This document shows positions 16,177 through 64,000 of a stretch of 64,000 bases of DNA, piece after piece (position 1 is the stretch's first letter; each line of letters opens with the position of its first letter). The translations under genes were made by a program, and so were the position numbers. The DNA comes from Burkholderiales bacterium (lineage in GTDB: Bacteria > Pseudomonadota > Gammaproteobacteria > Burkholderiales > SG8-39), in assembly GCA_035762345.1 (NCBI GenBank), contig DASTPE010000048.1:41948-105947 (forward strand). Reading direction: 5' to 3'. The notes below the pieces were generated by a model, which saw only the letters and a list, made by a program, of their open reading frames with translations, ran no database searches and was not told where the DNA came from.

Positions 16177-16278
16177 CACCTTAAGGAGTGCCGCCAGGTT
16201 TAGGCCGTCAGGCCGTACAAATGAAAAGGGCCCTGGGCAGCCGGATCGAGGTGAAGCGACCGAGGCCCCACGGGGCAG

Positions 16279-16308
16279 AAAAAACTTCAGGCTCAGATTT
16301 CAGCCTAA
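16279..16308 (-). terminator. Probable intrinsic terminator of the solA-like gene
   Basis: On the minus strand the hairpin is aggct-gaaatctg-agcct, overlapping the TGA stop. The tract gaagtttttt follows. The stem is short. Confidence 0.4.
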
Positions 16309-22773: not shown

Positions 22774-22892
22774 TTTCCTCCCCGTTCTTGTGCTCGAAGC
22801 GTGGACGGATTTAAGCACAGGCAAACCGCTCCGGACAAGCTGTTTTTAGAGGGAAAACCGATGCTTGCATGATAAAATCTGAGCCCTTCCCG

Positions 22893-28854: not shown

Positions 28855-28869
28855 CAGGGTGGCGTTTTC

Positions 28870-32065: not shown

Positions 32066-32727
32066 CCGTTCCCGTGATCGCGATCGACGGCCCGTCGGCG
32101 TCGGGGAAGGGCACGATCGCGAAGCGGGTGGCGGCGGCGCTGGGGTTTCACTACCTGGAAAGCGGGGCGCTGTACCGGCTGGTGGCGCTTATTGCGCTGC
32201 GACAGGGGCTACACGACGAGGCCGCGATCGCGGCAGCGGCCGCGGGCATGGATGTGTATTTCCAGGGAGATGAGATATTCCTTGAAGATGAAGAGGTTAG
32301 CTTCCATATCCGGCATGAGGAGGTCGGCAAGCGCGCCTCCGACATTGCACCGATGCCCGCTGTGCGGCGCGCCCTTCTGGCGCGGCAGCGGGCTTTCCGG
32401 AGCCGCCCCGGCCTAGTCGCCGACGGCAGGGACATGGGGACCATCGTCTTCCCCGACGCGCCCCTCAAAATCTTCTTGACAGCGGGCCCCGAAGTCAGGG
32501 CCCAACGTAGATATAAGCAGTTGATAGAAAAAGGAATCGCTGCTAATCTGAGCGCCCTTTCGCGGGACCTCGCGGAGCGCGATGCGCGGGACGCAAACCG
32601 CGCCGTGGCGCCGCTCGCACCGGCGCCGGATTCGCAAGTGCTCGATTCTTCGGGTCTTTCGGTCGAGGAGGTCGCCGACAGGGTATTGCAGTTGTGGCAG
32701 CAGAAGGTAACGGGTGAGCACCGCTAG
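32062..32727 (+). CDS. cmk: Cytidylate kinase
   Basis: The N-terminus reads [24 protein letters not shown] (P-loop). The ATG overlaps the aroA TGA (ATGA). The ORF-track start at 32041 lies inside aroA. Confidence 0.95.
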
Positions 32728-32793
32728 GACGGTGCTCGGTTTTCAACTTAGCCCGGGGGCCAAGCCTCCGGTTTGAAAAGGTTTTTTCATTAC

Positions 32794-34524: not shown

Positions 34525-34551
34525 GGCCAGCCAAGGGGGGAGATGGTCGCC

Positions 34552-34884
<333 letters not shown>

Positions 34885-34911
34885 GACCAACGCACCCATC
34901 GCTCGCGCACG

Positions 34912-35178
34912 ATGCGCATCGTCACCTGGACGATCCGCCTGGTGGTGTTCGTGCTGCTCGTCGCGTTTGCGGCAAAGAATGTCGAGCCGATTGCGCTGCG
35001 CTTCTACTTCGGCCTCGAGCTGAAGGCGCCGCTCGTGCTCGCGCTGCTGGCCGCCTTCGCGCTCGGCGCGCTCTTCGGTGTCGCGGCCCTGCTCCGCACG
35101 ATCGTCCGGCAGCGCAGGGAAATCTCGCTTCTTAGGAAACCGGTCGAGCCGGCGCCCCCGCCCGTGACGCCGCTTTAG
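34912..35178 (+). CDS. lapA: LPS assembly protein LapA (YciS, DUF1049)
   Basis: 88 aa with two helices, located immediately upstream of lapB as in other proteobacteria. Confidence 0.7.
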   Translation: MRIVTWTIRLVVFVLLVAFAAKNVEPIALRFYFGLELKAPLVLALLAAFALGALFGVAALLRTIVRQRREISLLRKPVEPAPPPVTPL

Positions 35179-43504: not shown

Positions 43505-43592
43505 GGAGAGTTGGCAGAGCGGTCGAATGCGGCGGTCTTGAAAACCGTTAGCCCGCAAGGGCTCGGGGGTTCGAATCCCTCACTCTCCGCCA
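43505..43592 (+). tRNA. serT: tRNA-Ser (anticodon UGA), CCA encoded
   Basis: The acceptor stem is GGAGAGT/ACTCTCC. The anticodon loop is CTTGAAA. The long variable arm reads TAGCCCGCAAGGGCTC. The T-arm reads GGGGGTTCGAATCCCTC. Confidence 0.95.
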
Positions 43593-49998: not shown

Positions 49999-50046
49999 TA
50001 AATCGGGTCAGAGCCCGAATTCTTGGCGTAAAATCCCCGCTCCTCC

Positions 50047-50140
50047 GGAGAGATGCCCGAGTGGCCGAAGGGGGCGCCCTGCTAAGGCGTTATACGGGCT
50101 TAAACCCGTATCGAGGGTTCGAATCCCTCTCTCTCCGCCA
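50047..50140 (+). tRNA. tRNA-Ser (anticodon GCU), CCA encoded
   Basis: The acceptor stem is GGAGAGA/TCTCTCC. The anticodon loop is CTGCTAA. A long variable arm is present. The T-arm reads GAGGGTTCGAATCCCTC. Confidence 0.95.
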
Positions 50141-50329
50141 AACCGTCTGGGTCCGTTCCGGACACTTAGGTGACGGATTATTCCGAGGACATTCAACTCG
50201 CCCTGTCTCGTGATCGACGAAGCCCAGGTCGTAGTGCATGAAACTCACCAGCCAGATCTTGTCCTCGACCTCACGGATGCCGTCCGCCTGGCGGCACGGG
50301 TGTGAAGCGCTCACCCGGGCGCCGCGCAT
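50141..50329 (-). mobile_element. C-terminal remnant of a DDE (rve/IS481-like) transposase abutting the tRNA
   Basis: The minus-strand frame reads ...RQADGIREVEDKIWLVSFMHYDLGFVDHETGRVE..NNPSPK.. This matches the characteristic ...EV.DgIWlVSFmdYDLGy.D.E...lEP..NPFgPKvlP tail of these transposases. No catalytic domain and no inverted repeat was recognised. Confidence 0.55.
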
Positions 50330-50703
50330 TTTACCCTTCGCGCGGCATCCTCGGCGCTCACAGGAGCCTGAGATTCGGGCCCACAGCTACGGGTTCGTCA
50401 GTGGCCATGGCCCCACAGAAGGCCCAAAAGCGGCGCTCTTTCAGAGCGTGGAACACGGACCTTAGGGAAATGAACTTCATGCGGCACAGTATTCTTCGCC
50501 GCATGCGGCGGCGCTATCGGCGGCGGCGGAACTGGCGTTCGGAGGACCGCGCATCCAGAGGTAGGCGGATTCTTACCAACAGGCAGCTATGCGGACGCCC
50601 CCTCAAATTATTTCTGGCAATGCGAGACGCGCCAAAGCGTCACGAGCGCTTGAGTTCGACCTTTACCGTCAGCCGGCAACGGATTGTTTCTGTTCGGCCA
50701 GAA

Positions 50704-51972
50704 CTAACGCCGGATGGACAACAGCACCTGCCGGCTACACACTACCTCCCCTTGCATGAAACGGTGGTGGTTAGCTTCGACGGCGGCGAGGTCGTAGAGA
50801 TAGTTCACCATCACGCCGAGCGATTCAGCCAGCCCCTTGTCCGACACGTCGGCACCAAGATTGATGCGCTCAAGCCGCGCGCCGTTCTCGAGGTGGAAGC
50901 GCGCTACTGGATCGCCGCTCGTCGTCGCACCGTAGCGCGCAAGGTAAGTGGCGGCGCATGCGGTAAGCAGGGCTTCGTCGTCCCGCTCCAGTACGCCTGC
51001 GCGCGCGGCAGCGTCCAGCCGCCCAAGATCGTCTCCGTGCCGGGTGCGGATCGCCTCGGCTACCGCAACGCCCCGCGCCTTCGTCAACCACTTGCGGAAA
51101 CCGGGTACGGGAGACAAGGTACAGAACCGCTTGAGCGAAGGCACTTCACTGCGCAGCCTCTCGGCCACGCGCTTGATCAGGAAGTTGCCAAGCGATACGC
51201 CCCTTAGTCCCGGCTCGCAGTTGCTGATCGAATAGAAGGCGGCCACGCTGGCTGGCTTACCCACGCGCGGTGCCGCGCGCCTTTCCTCGATGAGGTGGGC
51301 GATCTTGCGCGGGATTGCCCCCTCAAGCGCGACCTCGACGAAGATCAAGGGCTCGTCCGGCAGCTGGGGATGGAAAAACGCGAAGCAGCGCCGGTCGGGC
51401 TGCAGGCGGCGGCGCAGGTCGCTCCAATCGCGGATGGCGTGCACCGCCTCGTGGCGAATGATCTTTTCGAGCAGCGCGGCGGGCGAGTTCCAGTCTACCT
51501 GCCGTAGGTAGAGGAAGCCGGGATTGAACCATGAACCGAGCAGGTGGCTGAAGTCGGCGTCAACCGCCCGCAACTCGGGACGGTCGCGGAGGAGGCCAGC
51601 CAGGGCGCGTCGCATCGCCACGGCGGTCGCCACCCCGCCGCTCGCGCGATTGAGACGCTGAAGGAGCACTCGTCGCGGGGGATAAACCGCCCTCTGTAGC
51701 TCGAGGATGTTTTCTCGCGATGACTCCGCGGCATAGGCGCTCGCCGCTTGCAGCACGCGCTCCTTCTCCGGTGCGAGCGCGTCGAGGTACTCGAAGAACG
51801 CGCCCCGAGCGGCGTCATCCAGCTCGCCCCACAGGCGGATCACTTCGGCGGCGACGGCCTCGCCGTTGGACGTGCCCGCTTCCGAAAGCAGCTTCTGGCA
51901 GCCCAGCTTCAGTTCCTTCAGGGCAACCGTGGCCTTCGCTTGCGCCGATCGCGTAAACAGCCCGCTTAACAC
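50704..51972 (-). CDS. Malonyl-CoA decarboxylase (MCD/MatA family)
   Basis: 422 aa with a GTG start. Motifs include WFNPGFLYLRQVDWNSPAALLEKII.HEAVH, RRCFAFFHP..PDEPLIFVEVAL, FYSISNCEPGLRGVSLGNFLIKRV and TLSPVPGFRKWL. Confidence 0.85.
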   Translation of the reverse strand: MLSGLFTRSAQAKATVALKELKLGCQKLLSEAGTSNGEAVAAEVIRLWGELDDAARGAFFEYLDALAPEKERVLQAASAYAAESSRENILELQRAVYPPRRVLLQRLNRASGGVATAVAMRRALAGLLRDRPELRAVDADFSHLLGSWFNPGFLYLRQVDWNSPAALLEKIIRHEAVHAIRDWSDLRRRLQPDRRCFAFFHPQLPDEPLIFVEVALEGAIPRKIAHLIEERRAAPRVGKPASVAAFYSISNCEPGLRGVSLGNFLIKRVAERLRSEVPSLKRFCTLSPVPGFRKWLTKARGVAVAEAIRTRHGDDLGRLDAAARAGVLERDDEALLTACAATYLARYGATTSGDPVARFHLENGARLERINLGADVSDKGLAESLGVMVNYLYDLAAVEANHHRFMQGEVVCSRQVLLSIRR

Positions 51973-52120
51973 AATGCTTTCCCCTTACTGCTTTACCTCG
52001 AGGGAATTTTGGCAGCGGGAAGCCCGCCTGACAGCTACCTGACTTGCAAGAAATTGCTAGAACTCGATGGACGAAGAGTACAAGTCGTCGAAAAACCCCT
52101 TCGCGGGCCGATTAGGAACA

Positions 52121-53806
52121 TTAGGCGCTACCTTCGCAGCGTGTCGCCGGGTCAACGCAGCCGTAGTCGCGCTGCGCGCTGTCCGCGGTGACCTTGCCCT
52201 CGCGCACGTCGCGCGCGAGCGCCTCGCGACTGCGGCAGCGAGGATCGCCGTAGCCGCCGCCGCCGGCCGAGTCCATCACGACCGTGTCGCCAGGCTTGAG
52301 CTGCGTCAGGCCGTACGGGTTGCCCGGCTTGCCGTTGACGAGGAACCGCGCGCGCGCGCCTGGCTTGCCGCCGAAGAGGCCTTCCGGTGGCATGCGGAAG
52401 CGCCCGGATTGCAGCGCCATGTTCACCGGCGGCCGCGGCGCGTAGGCAGCGTCGGGCACGCGGAACACTTCACGCCGGCCGAGCGCGCCGCGCTGCTTGC
52501 CCGCGCCTCCGGAATCGGCGATGAGCTCGCGGCGCTCCACGATGAGCGGCGCGTCGCTCTCGAGGATTTCGACCGGCGTGTTCGCACCGTTGGCGGGGAA
52601 GATGAACGACCCTTCGCCGTCGCGCTCGGCGCTCGCGCCGAGCCCGCCGCCGCGGATCAGCACCGTGTGGAACGGCCGGCCGTCGCCGCGACGCCCGTAG
52701 AATATCTGCATCGTCGCCGGGGTGCCGCCGCCCGCGGCGACCACGCGCTCGGGTAGCGCCTTCGCGAGCGCGCGATAGATCACTTCGGTGACGAAGTGGC
52801 CGATCTGCATGCGCGCCGCGACGGCTGCAGGGAAGCGGCAGTTCACCACCGTGCCTTCGGGCGCGATCAGCCGGATCGGCGCCGCGATGCCGTGGTTGTT
52901 CGGAATCTCCGGATCGAAGATGCTCTTCACCGCCATGTGCACGTAGGCGTAGGTGAAGTTGTAGACCACGTTGCCGCCCCAGTCGACCTGCGGCGAGGCG
53001 CCGCTCAGGTCGATGGTGATGTCGCTGCCTTTGATGGTGACGGTGCACGGGATGCGCACGTCGGCATGGCCCGCCATCTGTTCGATCACGCCTTCGGCGC
53101 GGTAGACGCCGGCGGGAGCGCGTGTGATCGAGGCGCGGATGCTCGCCTCGCTCGCGCGGATGATCTCCTCGCCGAGCCCATCCAGATCCGGCAGCGCGTA
53201 CTGCTCGAGCATGCGCACGATCTTCTCGGCGCACACGTGGTTCGCTGCGATCTGCGAGCGGATGTCGCCCGCCACCTGCTCGGGCGTGCGCACGTTGGCA
53301 AGGATCATGTCGAGCACGCCCTGGCTGAGCGTGCCGCCCGCGTAAAGCTTGACGAGCGGTATGAAGAGCCCTTCCTCGAACACCTCGCGGTTGTCCGAGG
53401 CGACGCGGCCGCCGATGTCCGAGTGGTGCAGGATGCAGGCGGTGAAGGCAGCGACGCGCCCGCGATGGAACACGGGGCTTAGCACGCAGACGTCGTTCAG
53501 GTGGCCGGCGAGCGCCCAGGGATCATTGGTGATGAAGATGTCCCCGGGCGCGAGCGACTCGCGTCGCATCCCTTGCACGAGCTTGCGGATGCCGAGCGCC
53601 ATCGCGCCCGATTGGCCGGGCGTCGCTAGCGTGCCCTGCGCGAGCTCGCGCCCCTGCGAATCGGTAAACATGCAAGTGTAGTCGTGCGCATCGCGTAGCA
53701 GGCTCGAGAACGCGGTTCGCGCCACCGCGGCGTCGGACTCGTCGACGATCGAAACCAGCCGCCGCCAGAGGATTTCGAGCGCGATCGGGTCGAATTTGCG
53801 AGTCAT
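52121..53806 (-). CDS. Hydantoinase B / oxoprolinase family protein
   Basis: The sequence reads DPIALEILWRRLVSIVDE...RTAFS..LRDAHDYTCMF.D..G...AQ, characteristic of HyuB. Length is 561 aa. Confidence 0.9.
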   Translation of the reverse strand: MTRKFDPIALEILWRRLVSIVDESDAAVARTAFSSLLRDAHDYTCMFTDSQGRELAQGTLATPGQSGAMALGIRKLVQGMRRESLAPGDIFITNDPWALAGHLNDVCVLSPVFHRGRVAAFTACILHHSDIGGRVASDNREVFEEGLFIPLVKLYAGGTLSQGVLDMILANVRTPEQVAGDIRSQIAANHVCAEKIVRMLEQYALPDLDGLGEEIIRASEASIRASITRAPAGVYRAEGVIEQMAGHADVRIPCTVTIKGSDITIDLSGASPQVDWGGNVVYNFTYAYVHMAVKSIFDPEIPNNHGIAAPIRLIAPEGTVVNCRFPAAVAARMQIGHFVTEVIYRALAKALPERVVAAGGGTPATMQIFYGRRGDGRPFHTVLIRGGGLGASAERDGEGSFIFPANGANTPVEILESDAPLIVERRELIADSGGAGKQRGALGRREVFRVPDAAYAPRPPVNMALQSGRFRMPPEGLFGGKPGARARFLVNGKPGNPYGLTQLKPGDTVVMDSAGGGGYGDPRCRSREALARDVREGKVTADSAQRDYGCVDPATRCEGSA

Positions 53807-55875
53807 TGGGCGACGTCGATCCAGAGGAAACCGTATTCGTCGATGCGGCCCTTGCCGGCGGCGCCGACGATCACCGTAGACTCGCGCTCCTCAACGATTG
53901 CCGGCCCGGCGATTTGCGCGCCGGGCGCGAGCTGGTAGCGGTCGTAAACGGTGTGCGGAATGAACCCTTTGACGACGGCGCAGTAGGCGCTGCGCTCGCC
54001 TTTGATCGCATCCGCCAGGCGCCCGGTGGTCGTTATTTTCGGCAGCGAAAGCAGCTTCACCGGCAAACTCGCGCGCACGCAAAAGTTGACGAACTCGACT
54101 GGCGACTCGGGGTAGGTGCGGCCGTAAAGCCGCACATAGGTCTCATCGAAGCGCCGGCGCAACTCGGCGGCGTTCAGTTTTCCGAAGTCGCCCGGCGGCA
54201 CGGCGAGCGCCGTCTCGGCGCCCTGGCCGATGAAGCGCGCCTCCACCGAGCGCGTGAACTCGACGGGGCCTTCGGCGCCCGCCTTGCGCAGCGTGCGCTC
54301 GCCCTCGGCCTCGAGCTCGCGAAAGAGCTTCTCCAGCGCGGCGAAGTCCGCCGTGGAGAAGGCTACCTTGTGGCTGCGCACGAGATCGAAGGCGCGCGGC
54401 GCGGTGAAGAAGCCGAGCGCCGAGCCGACGCCCGCGTTGGGGGGCACGACGAGGCGCGGTGCGCCAAGCTTGCACGCAAGGCCGTATGCATGAACGGGCC
54501 CCGCGCCGCCGAACGCCGCCACGGTGACGAGCTGCGGGTTGCCGCCGCGCTCGGCGATGTGCGTCTTCGCCGCGGCGGCCATGATTTCGTTGACGAGATC
54601 GTGGATGCCCCACAGCGCCTGCACGAACGGCACGCCGAGCGGATTGGCGATGCGTTCCTCGATTGCCCGGCGCGCGGCCGCGGCGTCGAGCTTCATCGTG
54701 CCGCCGAGGAAGTAGTCGGCATCGAGGTAGCCGAGCAGGAGATCCGCATCCGTGACGGTCGGCTCGCCGCCGCCGCGCGCGTAGCAGACGGGTCCCGGCT
54801 CGGCGCCCGCGCTCTCCGGGCCGACTTGCAGCGTGCCGAGGCGGCTCACGCGCGCGACGCTGCCGCCGCCTGCGCCGATTTCCATGAGATCCACCACCGG
54901 CACCTGGATGGTCAGCCCGCTGCCTTTCTGGAAGCGCTGCACACGGCCGACTTCGAAGCTCGGCACGACACCGGCGACGCCGTTCTGGATCAGGCAGGAC
55001 TTGGCCGTCGTGCCGCCCATGTCGAAGCAGAACATCTCCGGGCACTCGAAGAGCCGGCTGTAGTACTGGCCGGCGATCACCGCCGCCGTCGGCCCGGACT
55101 CGATGATGCGCACCGGAAACTCAGCCGCAGTTTCCGCCGAGGTCACTCCGCCGGAAGAAAGCATGATGAACAGTCGCCCGCGGAAGCCGAGCCGCTCGAG
55201 CCGCTCGCGCAACGTGCGCAGGTAGCGCTCGGTGAGCGGCTTCACGTAGGCGTTCGTCACCGTCGTGCTGGTGCGCTCGTGCTCGCGGATCTGCGGCAGC
55301 ACTTCGTATGAGATGGAGACTGGCACGCCGGGCAGCTCCTCGGCGAGCAGCTTCTTCAGGGCGAGCTCGTGCTGCGGGTTCTCGAACGAGTTGAGCAGGC
55401 ACACCGCGACCGACTCCACCTGCAGGGCTTTCAACGCATACAGGGTCTGCCTTGCCTGCGCCGCATCGAGCGGCTCGAGCACGCTGCCGTCGGCACGCAG
55501 GCGCTCTCTCACTTCGAGCCGGCGCTCGCGCGGCACGAGCGGCTCGGGCATCTGCGCGAAGGGGTCGTAGGCGGCGTACCGGATCTCGCGCCCGAGCTCG
55601 AGCACATCACGGAAGCCGCGCGTCGTGACGAGCCCGGTGCGCGCGCCTTTGCGCTCAATGATCGCGTTGATGACGAGCGTCGTGCCGTGGATCAGCTCTT
55701 CGAGGTTGCGCGTGCAGCCCGGGACTTCGCGCTCGAGCGCGCCGACGCCGTCGAGGATCGCCTGCGCGGGGTCGCGGGGGGTGGTGAGGCACTTGTAGCT
55801 GCGGCTCGCCCCCGTCGCCTCGTCGAGTAGCACGAAGTCCGTGAAGGTGCCGCCAACGTCGATGCCGAGGCGCAT
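53803..55875 (-). CDS. Hydantoinase A / oxoprolinase family protein
   Basis: I chose the start at MRLGIDVGGTFTDFVLLDE (ASKHA-type ATPase fold). The track's upstream extension runs into the AT-rich promoter region. Its end overlaps the HyuB start by 4 nt. Confidence 0.9.
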   Translation of the reverse strand: MRLGIDVGGTFTDFVLLDEATGASRSYKCLTTPRDPAQAILDGVGALEREVPGCTRNLEELIHGTTLVINAIIERKGARTGLVTTRGFRDVLELGREIRYAAYDPFAQMPEPLVPRERRLEVRERLRADGSVLEPLDAAQARQTLYALKALQVESVAVCLLNSFENPQHELALKKLLAEELPGVPVSISYEVLPQIREHERTSTTVTNAYVKPLTERYLRTLRERLERLGFRGRLFIMLSSGGVTSAETAAEFPVRIIESGPTAAVIAGQYYSRLFECPEMFCFDMGGTTAKSCLIQNGVAGVVPSFEVGRVQRFQKGSGLTIQVPVVDLMEIGAGGGSVARVSRLGTLQVGPESAGAEPGPVCYARGGGEPTVTDADLLLGYLDADYFLGGTMKLDAAAARRAIEERIANPLGVPFVQALWGIHDLVNEIMAAAAKTHIAERGGNPQLVTVAAFGGAGPVHAYGLACKLGAPRLVVPPNAGVGSALGFFTAPRAFDLVRSHKVAFSTADFAALEKLFRELEAEGERTLRKAGAEGPVEFTRSVEARFIGQGAETALAVPPGDFGKLNAAELRRRFDETYVRLYGRTYPESPVEFVNFCVRASLPVKLLSLPKITTTGRLADAIKGERSAYCAVVKGFIPHTVYDRYQLAPGAQIAGPAIVEERESTVIVGAAGKGRIDEYGFLWIDVAQ

Positions 55876-55903
55876 CCGGGATTTCGGGGCTTGCCAAAAT
55901 ACA

Positions 55904-55923
55904 GTATACAGTATAATGTATAC
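55904..55923. promoter_or_regulatory. Near-perfect 20-bp palindrome (candidate GntR operator) containing a TATAAT box
   Basis: In gtatacagtataatgtatac, 9 of 10 positions are self-complementary. Two GTATAC cores fit the GT-N-AC logic of FadR-type GntR operators. tataat lies at 55912-55917, with ttgcca 15 nt upstream. Confidence 0.4.
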
Positions 55924-56060
55924 GTCATGTCGGCCGGCACCATTGCCCCGGACCCCGGCTACTGCCACTGCCTGAAGAGCACGCTACCCGGGCTTGAGCT
56001 TGTCCTTATTGAGCTAGCGCAAACGGCTCTCACCGAGTCGGCCCTCCTGGGAGGAGGACA

Positions 56061-56729
56061 TTGATCGCCAAGCTGCAGGTTCTCGAGCGCCCCGAGCCGC
56101 TCGGCGACCGCGTGTATACGAGGCTGCGCGAATACCTGCGCGCCGGGCGCATCCCGCACGGCCAGCCGCTGCAAGAGGCAGCGCTCGCGGCGCAGCTCGG
56201 CGTGTCGCGCACGCCAGTGCGCGAGGCGCTCGCTCGCCTCGCGAGCGAGGGTCTCGTCGTCGCCGAAGGCCGTAGCTTCACGGTGCCGAACCTCGTGTTG
56301 CGCGACGTGGAGGAGATCTACGCGCTCAGGTTCATGCTCGAACCGGAGGCGCTGCGCGAGGTGGCCGCCAGCAAGCCCGATCGCCGGGCCCTCGCGCGGC
56401 TACGCGAGGGCCTCGAAGGCATGGCCGAGGCGCACGAGGCGGACGATGGCACCGCATTCATGGAAGCGAATTACCGCTACCGGGATGCCTGGACCGATCT
56501 CGTGCCCAATAAGCGGCTGGTGCGCGCGATCCAAATGTACGCCGATCATGTGCGCTACCTGCGCGCGTTCACGCTCGACGAGCCCGCGGTGCGCGCCATC
56601 GTGTTGAAAGGCCTCAAGCGCCTTGCGGCGGCGATCGCCGCCGGCGACGGCGATGCGGCAGCCGAGGCGATGCGCGCGCACCTCGAGAATGCGAAGCAAA
56701 TTCTCATCGACAAGATCCGGGGGACCTGA
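56061..56729 (+). CDS. GntR-family (FadR/FCD subfamily) transcriptional regulator
   Basis: The winged HTH reads LQEAALAAQLGVSRTPVREALARLASEGLV. A C-terminal all-helical FCD-type domain follows. The TTG start follows GGGAGGAGG. Confidence 0.9.
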   Translation: MIAKLQVLERPEPLGDRVYTRLREYLRAGRIPHGQPLQEAALAAQLGVSRTPVREALARLASEGLVVAEGRSFTVPNLVLRDVEEIYALRFMLEPEALREVAASKPDRRALARLREGLEGMAEAHEADDGTAFMEANYRYRDAWTDLVPNKRLVRAIQMYADHVRYLRAFTLDEPAVRAIVLKGLKRLAAAIAAGDGDAAAEAMRAHLENAKQILIDKIRGT

Positions 56730-57913
56730 TGGCTTACAGGGCGGAAATTCCCTACGGCGCCTACTGGAGCACGCCGTTCGCGCGCTGGCAGGGCGCGTTC
56801 GCCAACCTCAATTCGGTCGAGTTCGCCGCGTACGTCGTGCGCAGAGAACTCGCGCGACGCGACCTGCCGGCGAAGACCTTCGACCACGGTGTCCTCGGCT
56901 TCAGCGTGCCGCAGAAGCACTCGTTTTATGGGCTGCCTTGGCTCGCCGGGCTTGCCGGCCTCGGCCACATCGGCGGTCCGACGCTGATGCAGGCGTGCGC
57001 TACCGGCGTGCGCGTGTTGCTCGCCGGCGCACAGGAGATCGAGTGCGGCATGTCGAGCGTCAGCCTTACAGTGGCCTGCGACCGCACCTCGAACGGCCCG
57101 CATCTCTACTACCCGAACCCGCGCGGGCCGGGCGGCACCGGCACGCACGAGGACTGGGTCATGGATAACTTCGGCTGCGACCCGCTCGGCAAGCACGCCA
57201 TGGTAATAACGGCCGAGAACGTGGCGAAGAAGCACGGCCTCACGACCTCCGAGCAGCACGAAATAGTGCTGCTGCGCGAGCGCCAGTACCGGCAGGCGGT
57301 GGACGAAGGCTTCCACAAACGGTTCATGACGCTGCCCTTCGAAGTGACGGGCAGCAAGACGCCGCTCACCGGCGACGAAGGCATCCGCAGTTCGACTGCC
57401 GACGGGCTCGCCAAGCTGAAGCCGGTGGTGGAGGGCGGCACCGTCACGTACGGCGGCCAGACCTTCCCGGCCGACGGCAACGCGGCGATCGTGCTGGCGA
57501 CCGCGGACAAGGCGAAGGAATTGTCCAGGGACAAGAAGATCCGCATCCGCGTCCACGGGTTCGGGCAGGCGCGGGCGCCGCTCGCCTACATGCCCGAAGC
57601 GCCCCTACCTGCCGCTCAGCGTGCGTTGGCGCAGGCCGGCATCGCGCTGAAGGATCTGAAAGCGATCAAGACGCACAACCCGTTCGCGGTGAACGACATC
57701 CTGTTCTCGCGGGCGAACGGCGTGCCACTCGAGCGTATGAACAATTACGGTTGCTCGCTTGTGTGGGGGCATCCCCAGGCGCCGATGGGCACGCGCGCCG
57801 TGATCGAGCTCATCGAAGAGCTTGTGATGCGCGGCGGCGGCTTCGGGCTCTTCACCGGCTGCGCCGCGGGCGATACGGCGATGGCCGTCGTGCTGGAGGT
57901 GTCCGGAGGCTAG
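56729..57913 (+). CDS. Thiolase-family acetyl-CoA C-acyltransferase-like protein
   Basis: The nucleophile Cys context is MQACATGV. THNPFAV, WGHPQAPMGTR and GLFTGCAAGDTAMAVVLE (second catalytic Cys region) are also present. Confidence 0.85.
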   Translation: MAYRAEIPYGAYWSTPFARWQGAFANLNSVEFAAYVVRRELARRDLPAKTFDHGVLGFSVPQKHSFYGLPWLAGLAGLGHIGGPTLMQACATGVRVLLAGAQEIECGMSSVSLTVACDRTSNGPHLYYPNPRGPGGTGTHEDWVMDNFGCDPLGKHAMVITAENVAKKHGLTTSEQHEIVLLRERQYRQAVDEGFHKRFMTLPFEVTGSKTPLTGDEGIRSSTADGLAKLKPVVEGGTVTYGGQTFPADGNAAIVLATADKAKELSRDKKIRIRVHGFGQARAPLAYMPEAPLPAAQRALAQAGIALKDLKAIKTHNPFAVNDILFSRANGVPLERMNNYGCSLVWGHPQAPMGTRAVIELIEELVMRGGGFGLFTGCAAGDTAMAVVLEVSGG

Positions 57914-57914
57914 C

Positions 57915-59369
57915 GTGGATCTCTCGCACTGGATCGAGCGACACGCGCGCTTCTCGCCGCGTGCGGTCGCGGTCCGCTTCGAGGGAAGCGACATCTCCTA
58001 TGCGGACCTGGCGAACCGTATCCGGCGGGCGGCCGCACTGCTGGCGTCACGCGGGGTGCGGCGGAACGACGCGGTGGCGTTTCTCGGCCTCAACCACCCG
58101 TGCGCGCTCGTCCTCCTTTTCGCCTGCGCGCGCCTTGGCGCGATGTTCCTGCCGCTCAACTGGCGCCTCGCGCCGCCTGAGACCGCACGAGTACTCACCG
58201 ATTGTCCGCCGCGGGTGCTTTTCGTCGAGCCCGCGTTTGCCGGCGTGGTACTTGACGGACTGCGCATTGAAGCGCTGGAGGAGAACGCGGGTGCTGAGCC
58301 CGCCCCAATCGGAAGCGAGGAGATGCCGGTGCTCCTCTGCTACACCTCGGGCTCGACCGGCGCGCCCAAGGGCGTCGTGCTCTCGCAGGGCGCGCTCGCC
58401 TGGAATGCGGTCAACAGCACGCACATGCACGACCTCACGAGCGGCGATCGCGTGCTGACTACGCTGCCGCTGTTCCACGTCGGCGGGCTAAACATTCTCA
58501 CTACGCCCGCGCTTCATGCCGGCGCGAGCATCGTCTTGCATCCGCGCTTCGACCCGCAAGCGACGCTTCACACCATCGAGCGCGAGCGCATCACGCTCAC
58601 GGTGCTGGTGCCGGCGCAGTTGGACGCGATGATGGAGCTGCCGGCATGGAAGAAGGCCGACCTCTCCAGCCTGCGCATGATCACCACCGGCTCGACGATT
58701 GTGCCGGGGGAGTTCGTGCGCAAAGTCTCGGCGCGCGGGGTTCCCGTGGTGCAGGTGTACGGCTCGACGGAAACGTGCCCGATCGCCGCTTACGTTCGCG
58801 CGCCCGATGCGCTGCGCAAGGCCGGCTCGGCCGGTGCGGCCGCGCTCCATTGCGAGCTGCGCGTGGTCGGAGAAGACGGCAGCTCGCTGCCGCCAGGGCG
58901 CGACGGCGAGATTCTGGTGCGCGGTCCAAATATCGCGAGCTCGTATTGGCACATGCCGGAGGAGACCGCGCGCGCCTTCGCCGGCGGTTGGTATCACTCC
59001 GGCGATGTCGGCCACCTCGACGAGGAAGACCATCTCTACGTCGTGGCGCGCATGAAGGATCTCATCATCTCCGGCGGGGAAAACATCTATCCGGCCGAAG
59101 TCGAAAGCGTGCTGCTCGAATCGCCCGCTGTGGAGGACGCCTGCGTCGTCGGCCGGCCCGACCAACGCTGGGGCGAAGTCGTCGCCGCCGCGATCGTGCT
59201 CAAGTCCGGCTGCCGCATGACCGAAGCTGAAGCGCTTGCGCTGTTCCAGGGGCGCATCGCACGCTACAAGCACCCGCGCGAAGTACGCTTCCTCGAGCGG
59301 CTGCCGCGCAGCGCGCTCGGCAAGGTGCAGCGCGAAGCAGTGCGCGCCGAAATCATGAGGGTCGCATGA
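57915..59369 (+). CDS. AMP-dependent acyl-CoA synthetase/ligase
   Basis: The AMP-binding motif reads LCYTSGSTGAPKGVVLS. YGSTET, GWYHSGD, ISGGENIYPAEVE and a terminal ...LGKVQR are present. Confidence 0.9.
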   Translation: MDLSHWIERHARFSPRAVAVRFEGSDISYADLANRIRRAAALLASRGVRRNDAVAFLGLNHPCALVLLFACARLGAMFLPLNWRLAPPETARVLTDCPPRVLFVEPAFAGVVLDGLRIEALEENAGAEPAPIGSEEMPVLLCYTSGSTGAPKGVVLSQGALAWNAVNSTHMHDLTSGDRVLTTLPLFHVGGLNILTTPALHAGASIVLHPRFDPQATLHTIERERITLTVLVPAQLDAMMELPAWKKADLSSLRMITTGSTIVPGEFVRKVSARGVPVVQVYGSTETCPIAAYVRAPDALRKAGSAGAAALHCELRVVGEDGSSLPPGRDGEILVRGPNIASSYWHMPEETARAFAGGWYHSGDVGHLDEEDHLYVVARMKDLIISGGENIYPAEVESVLLESPAVEDACVVGRPDQRWGEVVAAAIVLKSGCRMTEAEALALFQGRIARYKHPREVRFLERLPRSALGKVQREAVRAEIMRVA

Positions 59370-59791
59370 AGGCGAACAAGATCGATCATATTTGCATCGC
59401 GGTCCGCAATCTCGAGGCGGCGCGCAAGATCTGGGAGCCGATCCTCGGCAAGGACAAGCCCGACGACGCTTACATCGACGAGCCGGAGAAGATCAGGGTG
59501 GCGCGTTACTGGCTGGGCGGCGTCGGTTTCGAGCTGATGGAGTCGCTGACGCCGAACGGCGACGTCGCGAAGTTCATCGAGAAGCGCGGCGAGGGCGTAA
59601 TGATCATCTCGCTCAACGTCGACAACACGCGCGCCGCGATGGACGAGCTGAAGAGCAAGGGCTACCCGCTCATCGGCGGCCCGCGCAGGTTCCGCGACTG
59701 CGAGTTCGGCTTCGTGCACCCGAAGGCGGTGAACGGCGTGCTGCTGGAAGTCATCGACTACAAGTGGCATGAACTTCGAACCCAGCGCTGA
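59366..59791 (+). CDS. Methylmalonyl-CoA epimerase-like VOC (glyoxalase-fold) protein
   Basis: The sequence reads KIDHICIAVRNLEAARKIW...FELMESL...FIEKRGEGVMIISLNV...GFVHPKAVNGVLLEVI. Length (141 aa) and pattern fit MCE. Confidence 0.8.
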   Translation: MKANKIDHICIAVRNLEAARKIWEPILGKDKPDDAYIDEPEKIRVARYWLGGVGFELMESLTPNGDVAKFIEKRGEGVMIISLNVDNTRAAMDELKSKGYPLIGGPRRFRDCEFGFVHPKAVNGVLLEVIDYKWHELRTQR

Positions 59792-60902
59792 GCAGAAGCA
59801 GGTCCGCGACACGTTCGCGCGCTTCAGCGACGAGCGCGTCGCGCCGCGCGCCGCGGCGCTCGACGAGGCGCACGCCTTCCCGCGCGAGCTGTTCGGAGAG
59901 CTGGCGGCCATGGGCCTTTTCGGCATGCGCTATCCGGAGGCGGTCGGTGGCAGCGGCATGCAGCTCTCCGAGTTCTGCGTCGCGCTGGAGGAGATCGCTC
60001 GCGGCTCGATGTCGCTCGCCGGCTGCGCCGCGATGCAGTCGCTCATGGGCACCAAGTTCCTGCACATGCTCGGCAATGCGGACGTCCTGGAGCGGCTGTT
60101 CAGGCCCGCGCTGCGCGGCGAGAAGATCGGCGCCATCTGCATGACCGAGCCGAACGCCGGCAGTGACCTCGACTCGATCGCCACGCGCGCGCGCAAGGTT
60201 CAGGGCGGCTACCAGCTCGACGGGCAGAAGACCTGGGTCACCTCTGCACCGGTGGCCGATTTCTTTACCGTGTTTGCCAAGGCGGGCGAGGAGAGGAAGC
60301 TCACCATCTTCCTCGTCGAACGCGGCTTCAAGGGCCTGAGGATCGGGCGCGCGATCGAGAAGATGGGCGTTTGGGCGCTGCCGACCTCCGAGCTCGCGTT
60401 CGAGGGCTGCTTCGTGCCCGACGGCCATCGCCTGTCGAAGGAAGAAGGCGACGGCGAGGTGCACCTACGCAAGACGCTGGCCGAGATCCGCATCATCACG
60501 GGTGCGATGGCGGTCGGCCAGGCGCGCGCCGCGCTCGACGCCGCACTGCGCTATTCGGCCGAGCGCAAGCAGTTCGGCAAGCCGATCAATCGCTACCAGG
60601 CGATCCAGCACAAGCTCGCCGAGATGGCGACCGAGCTCGACGCGGCGGCGCAGCTCGTCTACCGCGCGGCCTGGCTGCACGATGTCGAGAAAGCGCACCA
60701 CAAGGAAGCGGCGATGGCGAAGCTCTTCGCAAGCGAAATGGCGGCGCGCGTCGCCGACCAAGCCGCGCGCGTCTTCGCCTCCTACGGCTACGCCATGGAA
60801 TACCCGGTGCAGCGCTATCTGCGCGACGTGCGCTTCACCCTTATCGGCGGCGGCACCAGCGAGATCCTCAAGCTGGTGATCGCGAAGGAGTTGTCTGCAT
60901 GA
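59769..60902 (+). CDS. Acyl-CoA dehydrogenase
   Basis: Canonical ACAD blocks are present: GAICMTEPNAGSDL, KTWVTSAP, QFGKPINRYQAIQHKLAEMA and YPVQRYLRDVRFTLIGGGTSEI. Confidence 0.9.
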   Translation: MNFEPSAEQKQVRDTFARFSDERVAPRAAALDEAHAFPRELFGELAAMGLFGMRYPEAVGGSGMQLSEFCVALEEIARGSMSLAGCAAMQSLMGTKFLHMLGNADVLERLFRPALRGEKIGAICMTEPNAGSDLDSIATRARKVQGGYQLDGQKTWVTSAPVADFFTVFAKAGEERKLTIFLVERGFKGLRIGRAIEKMGVWALPTSELAFEGCFVPDGHRLSKEEGDGEVHLRKTLAEIRIITGAMAVGQARAALDAALRYSAERKQFGKPINRYQAIQHKLAEMATELDAAAQLVYRAAWLHDVEKAHHKEAAMAKLFASEMAARVADQAARVFASYGYAMEYPVQRYLRDVRFTLIGGGTSEILKLVIAKELSA

Positions 60903-61288
60903 ACCCGGTCAAGGTTGTCCTCGCCAAGCCCGGCCTCGACGGCCATGATCAGGGTGCGAAGGTCGTGGCGCGCGCCCTGATGGACGCCGGCTTCGAAGTC
61001 ATTTACACGGGACTGCGCCAGACGCCGGAGGCGATCGCGCGCATCTCGCAAGACGAGGATCCGGACGTGATCGCGCTTTCCTCGATGGCGGGCTCGCACG
61101 TGCCGATCTGCCGCAAGCTCAAGCCGCTGCTCGAGCAGGCGGGCCTCTCCGACAAGCTCTGGATCATCGGCGGCAACCTGCCCGAGCGCGACCACGCCGA
61201 GCTGCGCTCGCTCGGGTTCAAGGGCATCTTCCCGTCGAGCTCGCGGCTCGACGACATCGTCAACTTCATTCGCGCGAACGCCTCATGA
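60899..61288 (+). CDS. Cobalamin-binding small subunit of a split methylmalonyl-CoA-mutase-family enzyme
   Basis: 129 aa with MNPVKVVLAKPGLDGHDQGAKVVARAL (the DxHxxG base-off/His-on motif) and ALSSMAGSH. The ATG overlaps the ACAD TGA. Confidence 0.9.
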   Translation: MNPVKVVLAKPGLDGHDQGAKVVARALMDAGFEVIYTGLRQTPEAIARISQDEDPDVIALSSMAGSHVPICRKLKPLLEQAGLSDKLWIIGGNLPERDHAELRSLGFKGIFPSSSRLDDIVNFIRANAS

Positions 61289-62913
61289 AACAGGACCTGC
61301 CGAAGGAAATGCGCCCTGCCGTTGCACTACGCCCCGTGGTCAACGAGTCGGGCATCGAGATCAAGCCGGTCTACGCCGCGGCCGATGTCGTGGCGAGCGG
61401 CGGCGACGCCATGATCGGGCTGCCGGGCGAGTATCCGTTCACCCGCGGCATCCACCCGTACATGTACCGCAAGCAGCCGTTCACTATGCGGCAGTACACG
61501 GGCTTCGGCAACGCCGCCGACACGAACAAGCGCTTCCACTACCTGATCGCCAACGGCCAGACCGGCCTCAACGTCGCTTTCGACCTGCCGACGCAGTGCG
61601 GGCTGGACTCCGACGATCCGCTCGCCGAAGGCGAGGTCGGCCGCGTCGGGATGGCGGTCGATACGCTGAAGGACTTCGAGATCGCCTTCGACGGCGTGGA
61701 TCTCGAGCGCATCACCGTGTCGCTCACCGTCAACGGCGCCGCGGCGATCCTCATCGCCATGTACCTCGCGATGGCGCAGAAGCGCGGCTACGATGTCTCC
61801 AAGCTGCGCGGCACGGCGCAGAACGACATCCTGAAGGAGTTCATCGGCCGCGGCACGTGGGTGTACCCGGTCGAGCCGTCGATCCGCCTGGTCGGCGACA
61901 CCATCGAGTACTGCGCCAAATACGCACCGAAGTACAGCCCGGTATCGGTGTGCGGCTACCACATCCGCGAATCGGGCGCCGATCCGGCCCAGGAGATGGC
62001 GTACGCGTTCGCGATCGCCAAGGCCTATGCCGACGAGGTGATCCGGCGGGGGCTTCCGGTCGACGAATTCGCCGGCCGCCTCTCGTACAACTTCAACTGC
62101 TTCGGCGGCATCTTCGAGCAGGTGGCGAAGTTTCGCGCCGCCCGCAGCCTTTGGGCGAAGATCATGAAGGAGCAGTACGGCGCCAAGAAGCCGGGCTCGA
62201 TGTGGGTGCGCATGATCGCCGGCGGCGGCGGCGGCGGCCTAACCTTCGAACAGCCCGAGCTCAACATCGTGCGCGGCGCCTACTACGCGCTCATTTGCGC
62301 GCTCGCCGGCACGCAGACCATGGCGCTTTGCTGTTACGACGAGGCCTACACCATCCCGTCCGAATACGCGCAGCGCATTTCGCTGCGCACGATGCAGATG
62401 CTGATCGAGGAGATGGGGCTTTCCGACACGGTCGATCCTCTCGGCGGCTCCTACTACATCGAAACGCTCACCAACCAGATGCGCAGCCGCATGGAAGCCA
62501 TCATGGCCGAGGTCGACGCGCAGGGCGGCATCGTCAAGCTCGTGGCCGACGGCGTGATCCAGGCGAAGGTGTCGGCGCAGGCCTATCGCCGGCAGCGCGA
62601 CATCGAGGAGGGCCGCTTCCGCAAGGTCGGCGTCAACTGCTACCGCACCGAAGACAAGACGCCGGAAATGGAATTCCATCCCTATAAGGAAGAGGACGGG
62701 CGAGCTCAGTGCCAGGCGCTCGCCCGCATCCGCGCCGAGCGCGATGCCGAGAAGGTGCGTGCGACGCTCGCCCGCGTGGAAGCCGATGCGCGCTCGGGCG
62801 TCAACCTGATGCCCGCGATCATGGAAGCGGTCAAGGCGTACGCGAGCGTGGGCGAAATCACCAAGGTGCTGGTCGGCGTCTTCGGCCGCTACCGCGAACC
62901 CGTGAGGTTTTAG
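61285..62913 (+). CDS. Methylmalonyl-CoA-mutase-family large (substrate-binding TIM barrel) subunit
   Basis: 542 aa with GEYPFTRGIHPYMYRKQPFTMRQYTGFG, GLNVAFDLPTQCGLDSD, GTAQNDILKEFIGRGTWVYP and SVCGYHIRESGA. Confidence 0.9.
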   Translation: MKQDLPKEMRPAVALRPVVNESGIEIKPVYAAADVVASGGDAMIGLPGEYPFTRGIHPYMYRKQPFTMRQYTGFGNAADTNKRFHYLIANGQTGLNVAFDLPTQCGLDSDDPLAEGEVGRVGMAVDTLKDFEIAFDGVDLERITVSLTVNGAAAILIAMYLAMAQKRGYDVSKLRGTAQNDILKEFIGRGTWVYPVEPSIRLVGDTIEYCAKYAPKYSPVSVCGYHIRESGADPAQEMAYAFAIAKAYADEVIRRGLPVDEFAGRLSYNFNCFGGIFEQVAKFRAARSLWAKIMKEQYGAKKPGSMWVRMIAGGGGGGLTFEQPELNIVRGAYYALICALAGTQTMALCCYDEAYTIPSEYAQRISLRTMQMLIEEMGLSDTVDPLGGSYYIETLTNQMRSRMEAIMAEVDAQGGIVKLVADGVIQAKVSAQAYRRQRDIEEGRFRKVGVNCYRTEDKTPEMEFHPYKEEDGRAQCQALARIRAERDAEKVRATLARVEADARSGVNLMPAIMEAVKAYASVGEITKVLVGVFGRYREPVRF

Positions 62914-63780
62914 ATGAATCCGGTCGAAAGCTATTTCGCGCCGCGCTCGCTCGCCGAGGCGGCGGAGATCCTGCGCGCGGGCAATGTCACCGTGCTCGCC
63001 GGCGGCACCGATCTCATCCCGCAGGCGAACGCCGGCCGCGTCAAATTCGCGCCGGTGCTGATGAACGTGAAACGCGTGCCGGAGCTGCGCGGCATCGGCG
63101 AGGAGAGTGGCGCCGTGCGCATCGGCGCGCTCGTCACGATCACGGAGCTTCGCGAGAGCGCGCTGGTACGGGAGCGTCTCAATCTGCTGTGGCAGGCCTG
63201 CGACCACTTTGCGAGCGACCAGATCCGCAATGCAGCGACGATCGGCGGCAACGTCTGCAATGCCTCGCCGGCCGGCGACACGCTCGTGCCGCTTCTGGCA
63301 CTGGACGCGCGCGTCGTGCTCGCCTCGAAACCCGATGGTGCCGTCACGCTGCGCAAGGTCCCGCTCAGCGCATTCGTCACCGGTCCCGGCGGCACCGTGC
63401 GCAAAGCAACCGAGCTGCTGACGGCGGTCGAAGTGCCGCTGCCGCCGAGGGGCTTCGTCGGCGAGTTCTACAAGCACGGCACGCGTCCCGGGCTCGACAT
63501 CTCCGCGATCGCCATCGCTGCAGGTGCTTGCCTGAAGAGCAGGGTATTGACGAACGTGAGAATCGCCTTCGGTGCTGTCGCCCCGACGCCGATCCGCGCG
63601 CCGCGCACGGAAGCGGTGCTCGAAGGCCGCCAGCCGGACGCGGCGACGCTCGATGCGGCGGCCGATGCGGCGCTCGCCGAAATTCATCCCATCTCGGACG
63701 TGCGCGCCTCGGACTGGTACCGCCGGGAGCTGGTGCGCAACATGTTGAAGAGAGTGATCAGTCATGTCGGCCTACTGTGA
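62914..63780 (+). CDS. FAD-binding medium subunit of a xanthine-dehydrogenase/CO-dehydrogenase-family molybdo-enzyme (CoxM-like)
   Basis: Motifs include LAGGTDLIPQ, IRNAATIGGNVCNASPAGD and a C-terminal ...ISDVRASDWYRRELV. Confidence 0.85.
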   Translation: MNPVESYFAPRSLAEAAEILRAGNVTVLAGGTDLIPQANAGRVKFAPVLMNVKRVPELRGIGEESGAVRIGALVTITELRESALVRERLNLLWQACDHFASDQIRNAATIGGNVCNASPAGDTLVPLLALDARVVLASKPDGAVTLRKVPLSAFVTGPGGTVRKATELLTAVEVPLPPRGFVGEFYKHGTRPGLDISAIAIAAGACLKSRVLTNVRIAFGAVAPTPIRAPRTEAVLEGRQPDAATLDAAADAALAEIHPISDVRASDWYRRELVRNMLKRVISHVGLL

Positions 63781-64000
63781 GATCAAATTCACGCTGAACG
63801 GCGTCAAGCGCCGCCTTGCCGTGCCCGCGAACATGAGCGCGCTCGAGATGCTGCGCGAGCAGCTCGGTCTGCGCGGCACCAAGTACGCCTGCGGCGAGGG
63901 AGAATGCGGCGCCTGCACCATCGTCGTGGACGGAAGGACGCTCAACGCCTGCCTGATGTTTGCCGTCGATTGCGACGGCCGCGAGCTCGTCACGATAGAG
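63765..64000 (+). CDS. [2Fe-2S] small subunit of the same molybdo-enzyme (CoxS-like), 3'-truncated by the window edge
   Basis: The sequence reads FTLNGVKRRLAVPANMSALEMLREQLGLRGTKYACGEGECGACTIVVDGRTLNACL. The plant-type ferredoxin Cys cluster is present. Confidence 0.85.

Follow-up and report, generated by a model that had tools for sequence, protein, structure and literature searches.

A probable iaa-type operon for oxygen-independent indoleacetate catabolism, in a variant architecture conserved among uncultured Burkholderiales

Positions 50704-64000 of a 64,000-nucleotide stretch of DNA from a Burkholderiales bacterium (contig DASTPE010000048.1; the whole stretch is called the window below) very likely hold an iaa-type operon for the oxygen-independent catabolism of indole-3-acetate (auxin) via CoA thioesters, a reading to which we assign a probability of roughly 0.8. 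The segment is a conserved architectural variant of the iaa locus, present in at least 19 uncultured Burkholderiales genomes and apparently undescribed before, in which a paralogous and divergently transcribed hyuAB pair takes the place of the internal lactamase genes, a VOC gene precedes iaaF, and a triple GTATAC candidate operator is present. The initial annotation of this DNA had found no described pathway with such a combination of genes and had named a match to one as grounds for abandoning its proposal. The cluster matches the iaa locus (PMC9613470, PMC8360864, PMC5214803), so the claim of novelty falls; the kind of pathway is already known, and what is new, to a modest degree, is its architecture.

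Correspondence of the segment with the iaa locus

The iaa locus (iaaABCDEFGHIJKLMPQR) encodes the anaerobic degradation of indoleacetate to 2-aminobenzoyl-CoA in Aromatoleum evansii and A. aromaticum (PMC9613470). Its products include an indoleacetate-CoA ligase (IaaB; from the Fig. 1 legend of PMC8360864), and further a phenylsuccinyl-CoA transferase (IaaL), a benzylmalonyl-CoA mutase (IaaGH), a benzylmalonyl-CoA dehydrogenase of decarboxylating type (IaaF), a binding protein (IaaM) and the regulators IaaQ and IaaR (PMC8360864); IaaL belongs to the family III CoA-transferases (PMC11659651). Ten genes of the variant are colinear with this cluster at 53-80% identity, and the order R-A-B-F-G-H-I-J is that of 46 canonical loci, Aromatoleum sp. 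L056 among them. L056 stands in here for the published cluster, since its IaaC shares one 90% cluster with A. evansii and Azoarcus sp. CIB proteins. Orthologous iaa clusters are said to have been surveyed by Schuhle et al. 2016.

Relative to L056 the regulator is 53% identical, the thiolase 71%, the AMP-forming ligase 57%, the acyl-CoA dehydrogenase (ACAD) 79%, the B12-binding subunit 77%, the mutase large subunit 79%, the FAD subunit 60% and the 2Fe-2S subunit 68%, so that ACAD, B12 subunit, mutase and thiolase, together with the molybdenum (Mo) subunit encoded in variant loci (products F, G, H, A and K), lie at 71-80%. Canonical clusters differ among themselves to a similar degree (ligase 54-67%, regulator 45-69%, FAD subunit 51-72%). 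For the Mo subunit, variant loci show 78% identity to Aromatoleum, and some loci of canonical architecture only 55-57%. Ligase, regulator and FAD subunit have thus diverged from Aromatoleum no further than canonical clusters have from one another, and with the Mo subunit at 78% these comparisons give no signal of a changed substrate.

Compared with the iaa locus of Aromatoleum aromaticum EbN1 and A. evansii KB740, the segment has the same gene families in the same order (53-80% identity to the Aromatoleum locus) and shares the operator core GTATACAGTAT, but it lacks internal iaaC and iaaE and has instead a divergent paralogous pair (35% and 30% identical), carries a VOC/epimerase-like gene inserted before iaaF, and retains the hydratase/dehydrogenase gene as a relic. 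In place of the IaaM binding protein, relatives of the segment have downstream genes for NnrS, MeaB, a second ligase and a PEP-mutase-like protein.

The gene calls were checked with a list of open reading frames (ORFs) and with Pfam and NCBIfam profile scans. All 12 genes called in the initial annotation are present on the strands given there, and its family assignments stand, except that the label of epimerase is kept only tentatively and the malonyl-CoA decarboxylase (MCD) gene is removed from the unit. The features are as follows.

50704-51972, minus strand: MCD family gene (Pfam MCD_N and MCD)
52121-53806, minus strand: hyuB, Hydantoinase B-type subunit (Pfam Hydantoinase_B, 497 bits; the NCBI protein HEU4351149.1)
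53803-55875, minus strand: hyuA, Hydantoinase A-type subunit, 690 aa (Pfam Hydant_A_N, Hydantoinase_A and Hydant_A_C)
55904-55923, no strand: operator-like element GTATACAGTATAATGTATAC with three GTATAC-type hexamers
55927-56064, plus strand: 45-codon putative relic of a HADH-ECH fusion gene (3-hydroxyacyl-CoA dehydrogenase/enoyl-CoA hydratase; tblastn)
56061-56729, plus strand: GntR/FCD regulator of the FadR subfamily (Pfam GntR and FCD)
56729-57913, plus strand: thiolase, IaaA-like (Pfam Thiolase_N/C)
57915-59369, plus strand: AMP-forming acyl-CoA ligase, IaaB-like (Pfam AMP-binding)
59366-59791, plus strand: VOC/glyoxalase-fold protein, 141 aa (Pfam Glyoxalase_4)
59769-60902, plus strand: ACAD, IaaF-type (GGG motif; 79% identity to a named protein)
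60899-61288, plus strand: B12-binding small subunit, IaaG-like, 129 aa (Pfam B12-binding; TIGR00640 at 127 bits, above its cutoff)
61285-62913, plus strand: acyl-CoA mutase large subunit, IaaH-like (Pfam MM_CoA_mutase, 626 bits)
62914-63780, plus strand: FAD subunit of a xanthine-dehydrogenase-family Mo enzyme, IaaI-like (Pfam FAD_binding_5 and CO_deh_flav_C)
63764-64000, plus strand: 2Fe-2S subunit, IaaJ-like, cut by the end of the window (Pfam Fer2)

The tight coupling described for these genes is borne out, as all junctions of the rightward arm overlap or abut: regulator and thiolase overlap by 1 nt, thiolase and ligase are separated by 1 nt, ATGA overlaps join ligase to VOC gene, ACAD to B12 subunit and B12 subunit to mutase, VOC gene and ACAD overlap by 23 nt, mutase and FAD subunit abut, and the FAD and 2Fe-2S subunits overlap by 17 nt. 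On the leftward arm the reported 4-nt overlap of hyuA and hyuB is real. The start of hyuA, placed at 55968 before, is corrected to 55875, giving the N-terminus MRLGIDVGGTFTD (MRLGIDVGG) and a product identical to HEU4351150.1, and the divergent intergenic region consequently measures 185 bp. The NCBI record (HEU4351149-HEU4351158) gives only generic family names ('thiolase family', 'VOC family', 'methylmalonyl-CoA mutase family'), because all NCBIfam equivalog matches of the segment proteins fall below cutoff.

The ACAD carries a diagnostic signature of the pathway. In all IaaF orthologues GGG replaces the catalytic YEG of ordinary acyl-CoA dehydrogenases (PMC8360864), and the window protein reads LIGGGTSEI, its GGG (residues 360-362) standing in the place of YEG, which puts it in the IaaF subclass. 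The motif is kept in 71 of 71 ACAD orthologues of the related loci. At 79% identity it matches WP_312657582.1 of L056, called benzylmalonyl-CoA dehydrogenase in UniRef, and JGI metagenome proteins 88-89% identical to the window ACAD bear the same name.

The mutase shows a compatible pattern. Its large subunit has HcmA (4r3u, 502 bits) as its closest solved structure and shares with HcmAB, the 2-hydroxyisobutyryl-CoA mutase, the split into large and small subunits, but lacks the Ile/Asp pair of HcmA; it keeps instead the Tyr (RQYTGF) and Arg (FIGRGT) of methylmalonyl-CoA mutase, which are conserved in 80 of 80 orthologues, and like that enzyme has Ala at the position of HcmA Asp117. In methylmalonyl-CoA mutase the Tyr and Arg bind the carboxylate of the substrate, and in HcmA the Asp determines specificity. 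The combination of Tyr, Arg and Ala fits a substituted succinyl- or malonyl-CoA as substrate. It does not score as a methylmalonyl-CoA mutase (equivalog PRK09426, 503 bits against a cutoff of 876), and its B12 domain is a separate protein of 129 aa. In distinction to both methylmalonyl-CoA mutase and HcmAB, context and literature (PMC8360864) assign phenylsuccinyl-CoA and benzylmalonyl-CoA as its substrates.

The Mo subunit of the relatives has 4-hydroxybenzoyl-CoA reductase alpha as its best NCBIfam match (604 bits, cutoff 995). Since this enzyme converts a CoA ester, the match is compatible with a CoA-ester substrate here. The three-subunit FAD, 2Fe-2S and Mo organisation is common to 4-hydroxybenzoyl-CoA reductase and its kin, whereas the reaction proposed here would be hydroxylation of a pyrrole ring rather than reductive dehydroxylation. 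Among iaa-like loci the Mo subunit occurs in two types, ~75-80% or ~55% identical to the reference from the variant locus L002, and the FAD subunit co-varies with the type (~48%). The loci concerned are L033, L035, L036, L042, L046, L049, L057, L058, L060, L067, L069, L071, L074, L075, L078 and L080, and the split may reflect a second displacement, that of the hydroxylase, within clusters of canonical architecture.

Several other systems were considered for this combination of enzymes. They were an ethylmalonyl-CoA pathway module (epimerase, mutase and ACAD), the mutase routes for pivalate, isobutyrate and 2-hydroxyisobutyrate, ketone carboxylation of the acetone- or acetophenone-carboxylase type, anaerobic alkane (alkylsuccinate) rearrangement with a decarboxylase, and CoA-ester hydroxylation of the furoate or pyrrole-2-carboxylate type. 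All were rejected on the combined grounds of colinearity with iaa, the GGG motif of the ACAD, the position of the hydantoinase pair in the lactamase branch together with the absence of a gamma subunit, and the lack of conservation of the MCD gene with the cluster.

Two architectures of the cluster in related genomes

Species-representative genomes, searched with the mutase as query, yielded 234 relatives. Eighty loci with flanks of 10 kb were retained from these (designated L001 and so on; L081-L083 are further related loci that were checked), and the window proteins, with reference proteins from three loci, were mapped onto all 80 by tblastn. The neighbourhood comparison suggested in the initial annotation, with the mutase as query, thereby yields a tightly conserved cluster that recurs as a unit in 80 species-level genomes and is not a chance juxtaposition. 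Two architectures are seen, 46 loci being canonical and 19 variant, with 15 too short to be classified.

Canonical loci read regulator, thiolase, ligase, hydantoinase A, hydantoinase B, ACAD, B12 subunit, mutase, FAD subunit, FeS subunit, Mo subunit and family III CoA-transferase, and genes for a HADH-ECH fusion and for a periplasmic binding protein are often found downstream of the CoA-transferase. Examples are Aromatoleum sp. L056, Ca. Desulfobacillus L026, Ramlibacter L060, Sulfuritalea and the alphaproteobacterium Emcibacter. Variant loci have hyuB and hyuA reading leftward and, reading rightward, a HADH-ECH gene in some, then regulator, thiolase, ligase, VOC gene, ACAD, B12 subunit, mutase, FAD, FeS and Mo subunits and CoA-transferase, after which NnrS, MeaB, a second ligase and a PEP-mutase/isocitrate-lyase (ICL)-like gene follow. 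All 19 belong to uncultured Burkholderiales and include the closest relatives of the window, at ~90% identity. The expectation that the Mo subunit lies just past the edge of the window is well supported, as it directly follows the FeS gene in 67 of 67 relatives with enough sequence; the CoA-transferase in turn directly follows the Mo subunit in 60 of 60.

The genes for NnrS, MeaB, a FadD-like AMP ligase and a PEP-mutase/methylisocitrate-lyase-like protein are found in L001, L002, L003, L005, L008, L010, L011, L013, L016 and L028 at ~15.3-21.6 kb in locus coordinates, which corresponds to 2-10 kb past the right end of the window. Aromatoleum L056, too, has an NnrS homologue (45%), located after its binding-protein gene. 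MeaB, which is likely the mutase chaperone, lies downstream of the CoA-transferase in the variant relatives and upstream in loci of the Sulfuritalea type; the window itself holds neither MeaB nor a propionyl-CoA carboxylase, in agreement with the initial annotation.

One locus, L006 (JBGOTT010000051.1), is a mosaic. Regulator, thiolase and IaaC/IaaE of this locus match the canonical type (60-86% to canonical references), while its ACAD-to-Mo genes match the variant type, with a mutase 88% identical to that of the window; no ligase gene was detected in it. The mosaic suggests recombination between both architectures. Its pairing of R-A-C-E genes of canonical type with F to K genes of variant type speaks for the two lactamases being interchangeable.

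Variant-specific genes, shared promoter and flanks

The variant departs from the iaa locus in its ring-opening enzyme. HyuA is 35% identical to Aromatoleum IaaC (350 bits) and HyuB 30% identical to IaaE, while IaaC itself scores higher against the caprolactamase 6yra (479 bits) than against the window HyuA. Against solved relatives HyuA gives 402 bits with N-methylhydantoinase (7hk5), 346 bits with caprolactamase (6yra) and lower scores, 301 and 220 bits, with carboxylases of the acetone/acetophenone type; both subunits remain well below equivalog cutoffs (514 against 1000 bits, and 227 against 1000 bits for HyuB with the caprolactamase beta model). Judged by these sequence matches, HyuA and HyuB belong to the lactam-hydrolase branch and not to the carboxylase branch. 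No lactamase of the IaaC/IaaE cluster lies between ligase and ACAD in the segment, the same family being present as a paralogue.

HyuB orthologues 71-90% identical occupy the same divergent position in related loci, and hyuAB is adjacent and divergent in all 13 variant loci with sequence upstream of the regulator and also in L081-L083, with varying genes on its far side. The pair and IaaC/E are mutually exclusive, 19 loci having the one, 46 the other and none both. Adjacency, exclusivity and the mosaic of L006 together tie hyuAB to the cluster. Paralogous displacement of the ring-opening enzyme is the simplest reading, and we propose HyuAB as a candidate 2-oxoindoleacetyl-CoA gamma-lactamase recruited independently of IaaC/E. 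ATP-dependent lactamases such as CapAB, N-methylhydantoinase and 5-oxoprolinase have the same two-subunit A/B organisation with overlapping genes, but in contrast to the caprolactamase and hydantoinases, the context of hyuAB points to an oxindole-type gamma-lactam CoA ester rather than to caprolactam or a hydantoin.

The slot left by iaaCE is occupied by the VOC gene, which is found in the variant architecture alone (15 of 19 loci). Methylmalonyl-CoA epimerase (MCE) TIGR03081 is the best NCBIfam match of its product, at 76 bits against a cutoff of 115, and solved methylmalonyl-CoA epimerases match it weakly. Where the aligned MCE-like homologue 3oa4 has an HH pair (QQ in 6bu2), 15 of 15 orthologues have M-I/L; in the P. 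shermanii enzyme this pair holds a metal-binding His. With a score below cutoff and HH absent from all 15 orthologues, the protein cannot be placed among the methylmalonyl-CoA epimerases, and its VOC fold is what these comparisons support. As methylmalonyl-CoA epimerase can epimerise benzylmalonyl-CoA and IaaF is strictly enantiospecific (PMC8360864), a dedicated epimerase between the mutase product and IaaF would be a sensible role, and the VOC protein is tentatively assigned as a (2-aminobenzyl)malonyl-CoA epimerase.

In the operator-like element GTATACAGTATAATGTATAC at 55904-55923, three GTATAC-type hexamers follow one another at a spacing of 7 bp. The hyuA start codon is 29 bp away, and the element overlaps a TATAAT of -10 type with TTGCCA (55891-55896) before it. 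It is unique in the window, and 100 shuffles gave no match. The same triple pattern stands at the equivalent position in 10 variant loci (L001-L003, L005, L007, L008, L017, L023, L028 and L069), and in canonical loci, among them L019, L021, L026 and Aromatoleum L056, the core TGTATACAGTAT precedes the regulator gene by 45-70 bp. The regulator, 72-84% identical to its counterparts in variant loci and 53% to that of L056, has the GntR helix-turn-helix and FCD domains, and in canonical clusters the GntR counterpart lies directly upstream of iaaA. Palindromes of the GT-N-AC type, to which the element in the promoter region belongs, are the usual operators of the GntR family. The triple element is a candidate IaaR-type operator, to which the GntR protein is predicted to bind. 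The GntR/FCD protein would control both arms from this one operator in the shared promoter; a single operator for both arms supports the GntR-centred divergon put forward in the initial annotation. A promoter and terminator scan of 50000-56800 gave nothing above shuffle expectation.

Between the operator-like element and the regulator lies the 45-codon ORF. Its product (MSAGTIAPDPGY...LLGGGH*) is 49-60% identical by tblastn to residues 12-58 of the HADH-ECH protein of L002, and comprises an N-terminal Rossmann/NAD-binding stretch followed by last residues that resemble the HADH-ECH C-terminus; its stop codon overlaps the GntR start, as the HADH-ECH stop does in L002. An intact HADH-ECH of 653-667 aa stands at this position in L001-L003, L023, L065, L070 and L081-L083, and a still shorter relic in L005. 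By its sequence the ORF is the scar of an in-frame internal deletion of the HADH-ECH fusion gene.

On the far side of hyuB, the MCD gene lies between hyuB and tRNA-Ser(gct) at 50047-50140. It has no tblastn match in any of the 80 loci. In the relatives checked, five different genes or gene families take its place beside hyuB; L005 and L014 have PALP there, L081 and L082 an HTH_Crp gene and L083 URO-D. The MCD gene, which the initial annotation had included in the unit, is therefore probably an adjacent neighbour and not part of the system. The tRNA-Ser(gct) gene itself directly follows an aspartokinase gene, 560 bp from the MCD gene; the window also carries tRNA-Ser(tga) at 43505-43592 and a tmRNA gene at 17493-17860 (tag ANDERFALAA), and no integrase was seen in it. 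A genomic island at tRNA-Ser(gct) is not supported, as the same Trypsin-MoxR-DUF58-BatA neighbourhood is found near the cluster in L081. A housekeeping block at 22869-35178 (translations read by eye: gyrA, a serC-like aminotransferase, a 2-hydroxyacid dehydrogenase, pheA-, hisC- and tyrA-like genes and others) indicates a chromosomal rather than a plasmid context. Further left, 13600-16300 has a lower G+C content (0.57 against ~0.65) and almost no convincing ORFs, and the adjoining ORF 12733-13605 is substrate-binding-protein-like with an aberrant tail; this stretch may be decayed or foreign DNA.

Proposed route and alternative readings

The route proposed for the segment is modelled on the published Aromatoleum pathway. 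The IaaB-like ligase would form indoleacetyl-CoA, which the IaaIJK-like Mo/FAD/FeS dehydrogenase would hydroxylate at C2 with water to give 2-oxoindoleacetyl-CoA, a gamma-lactam. Ebenau-Jehle et al. 2012 reportedly showed that in Aromatoleum the Mo enzyme performs the initial, water-dependent hydroxylation. The ATP-dependent HyuAB, in place of IaaC/E, would open the ring to (2-aminophenyl)succinyl-CoA, the IaaL CoA-transferase (encoded past the window in relatives) would shift the CoA to the other carboxyl group, and the B12 mutase IaaGH would rearrange the skeleton to (2-aminobenzyl)malonyl-CoA, which the VOC protein may epimerise. Oxidative decarboxylation by IaaF would then yield 2-aminocinnamoyl-CoA, and hydratase and dehydrogenase steps together with the IaaA thiolase would lead to 2-aminobenzoyl-CoA and acetyl-CoA. 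The chemical logic sketched in the initial annotation was right in outline: a Mo-hydroxylated N-heterocyclic acid gives a lactam that is opened by an ATP-dependent hydantoinase-type enzyme, followed by skeleton rearrangement of a CoA ester. The nicotinate fermentation of Eubacterium barkeri follows an analogous logic of Mo hydroxylation beside the ring nitrogen, lactam hydrolysis and B12-dependent skeleton rearrangement, but with free acids in place of CoA esters, unrelated ring-opening and mutase enzymes and another substrate.

Several points weigh against assigning this route to the segment. The members of the variant clade are all metagenome-assembled genomes, and the Mo subunit and CoA-transferase lie outside the window, being placed there from relatives ~90% identical. 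HyuA and HyuB are out-paralogues and not orthologues of IaaC/E, their proposed substrate comes from context only, and the VOC protein stays below the epimerase cutoff without the HH motif. With the HADH-ECH gene of the cluster deleted, the genome must supply hydratase and dehydrogenase from elsewhere. Finally, NnrS, the second ligase and the PEP-mutase/isocitrate-lyase-like protein, unlike MeaB as mutase chaperone, have no assigned role in the published pathway.

Some of these points could also be read as signs of a different substrate. The variant might channel a different arylacetic or N-heterocyclic acetic acid, such as a substituted indoleacetate or an oxindole-type compound, into the same arylsuccinyl-CoA/mutase/IaaF module, the recruited lactamase and the VOC protein adapting the upper pathway. 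The out-paralogy of the ring-opening pair (IaaC being nearer to caprolactamase, 479 bits, than to HyuA, 350 bits), the restriction of the VOC gene and the downstream NnrS-MeaB-ligase-PEP-mutase genes to the variant, and a ligase only 57% identical to its Aromatoleum counterpart would suit such a change. Yet ligase, FAD subunit and regulator diverge just as they do among canonical clusters, the Mo subunit is closer to that of Aromatoleum (78%) than are those of some canonical-architecture loci (55-57%), L006 combines a canonical lactamase with variant-type F to K genes, and the operator core is common to variant and canonical loci, which makes another substrate unlikely. We are similarly doubtful of the broader proposal that the variant clade, with at least 19 uncultured Burkholderiales species, modifies the upper pathway, its recruited lactamase and HH-less VOC protein serving another substrate or another stereochemical course and the NnrS-MeaB-ligase-PEP-mutase-like genes extending the route past 2-aminobenzoyl-CoA.

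It is very improbable that hyuAB, with or without the MCD gene, is an unrelated neighbouring operon, such as an oxoprolinase or hydantoinase, beside an iaa-like operon that has no lactamase or has one elsewhere. The pair is transcribed separately, from the opposite strand, its sequence by itself points to no substrate, and the adjoining MCD gene is indeed an unrelated neighbour; but chance proximity does not account for 13 of 13 variant loci, and L081-L083, keeping hyuAB adjacent and divergent while the far-side genes differ, for the strict exclusivity with IaaC/E, or for the conserved operator-like element 29 bp from the hyuA start codon, and the pathway requires a ring-opening step. The first suggestion for this DNA, a genuinely new pathway acting on a cyclic amide or branched acid and bearing a superficial likeness to iaa, can be set aside almost entirely: the generic NCBI names and the NCBIfam equivalog scores, all below cutoff, would leave room for it, but it is already contradicted by ten genes colinear with iaa at 53-80%, the GGG motif and the common operator core.

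An iaa-type operon thus stays the preferred reading, and with it ten generically named genes become a coherent and already characterised auxin-degradation pathway. The oxygen-independent iaa route is widespread, many of the 234 mutase relatives belonging to uncultured Burkholderiales and Rhodocyclales of soil and groundwater, and its distribution bears on auxin turnover in the rhizosphere and in anoxic soils. In the variant, nature has run an experiment on how one enzyme displaces another, two different hydantoinase-type lactamases being available for a single step, and the variant also offers a candidate dedicated epimerase for the enantiospecific IaaF as well as a well-defined putative operator for studies of IaaR-type regulation.

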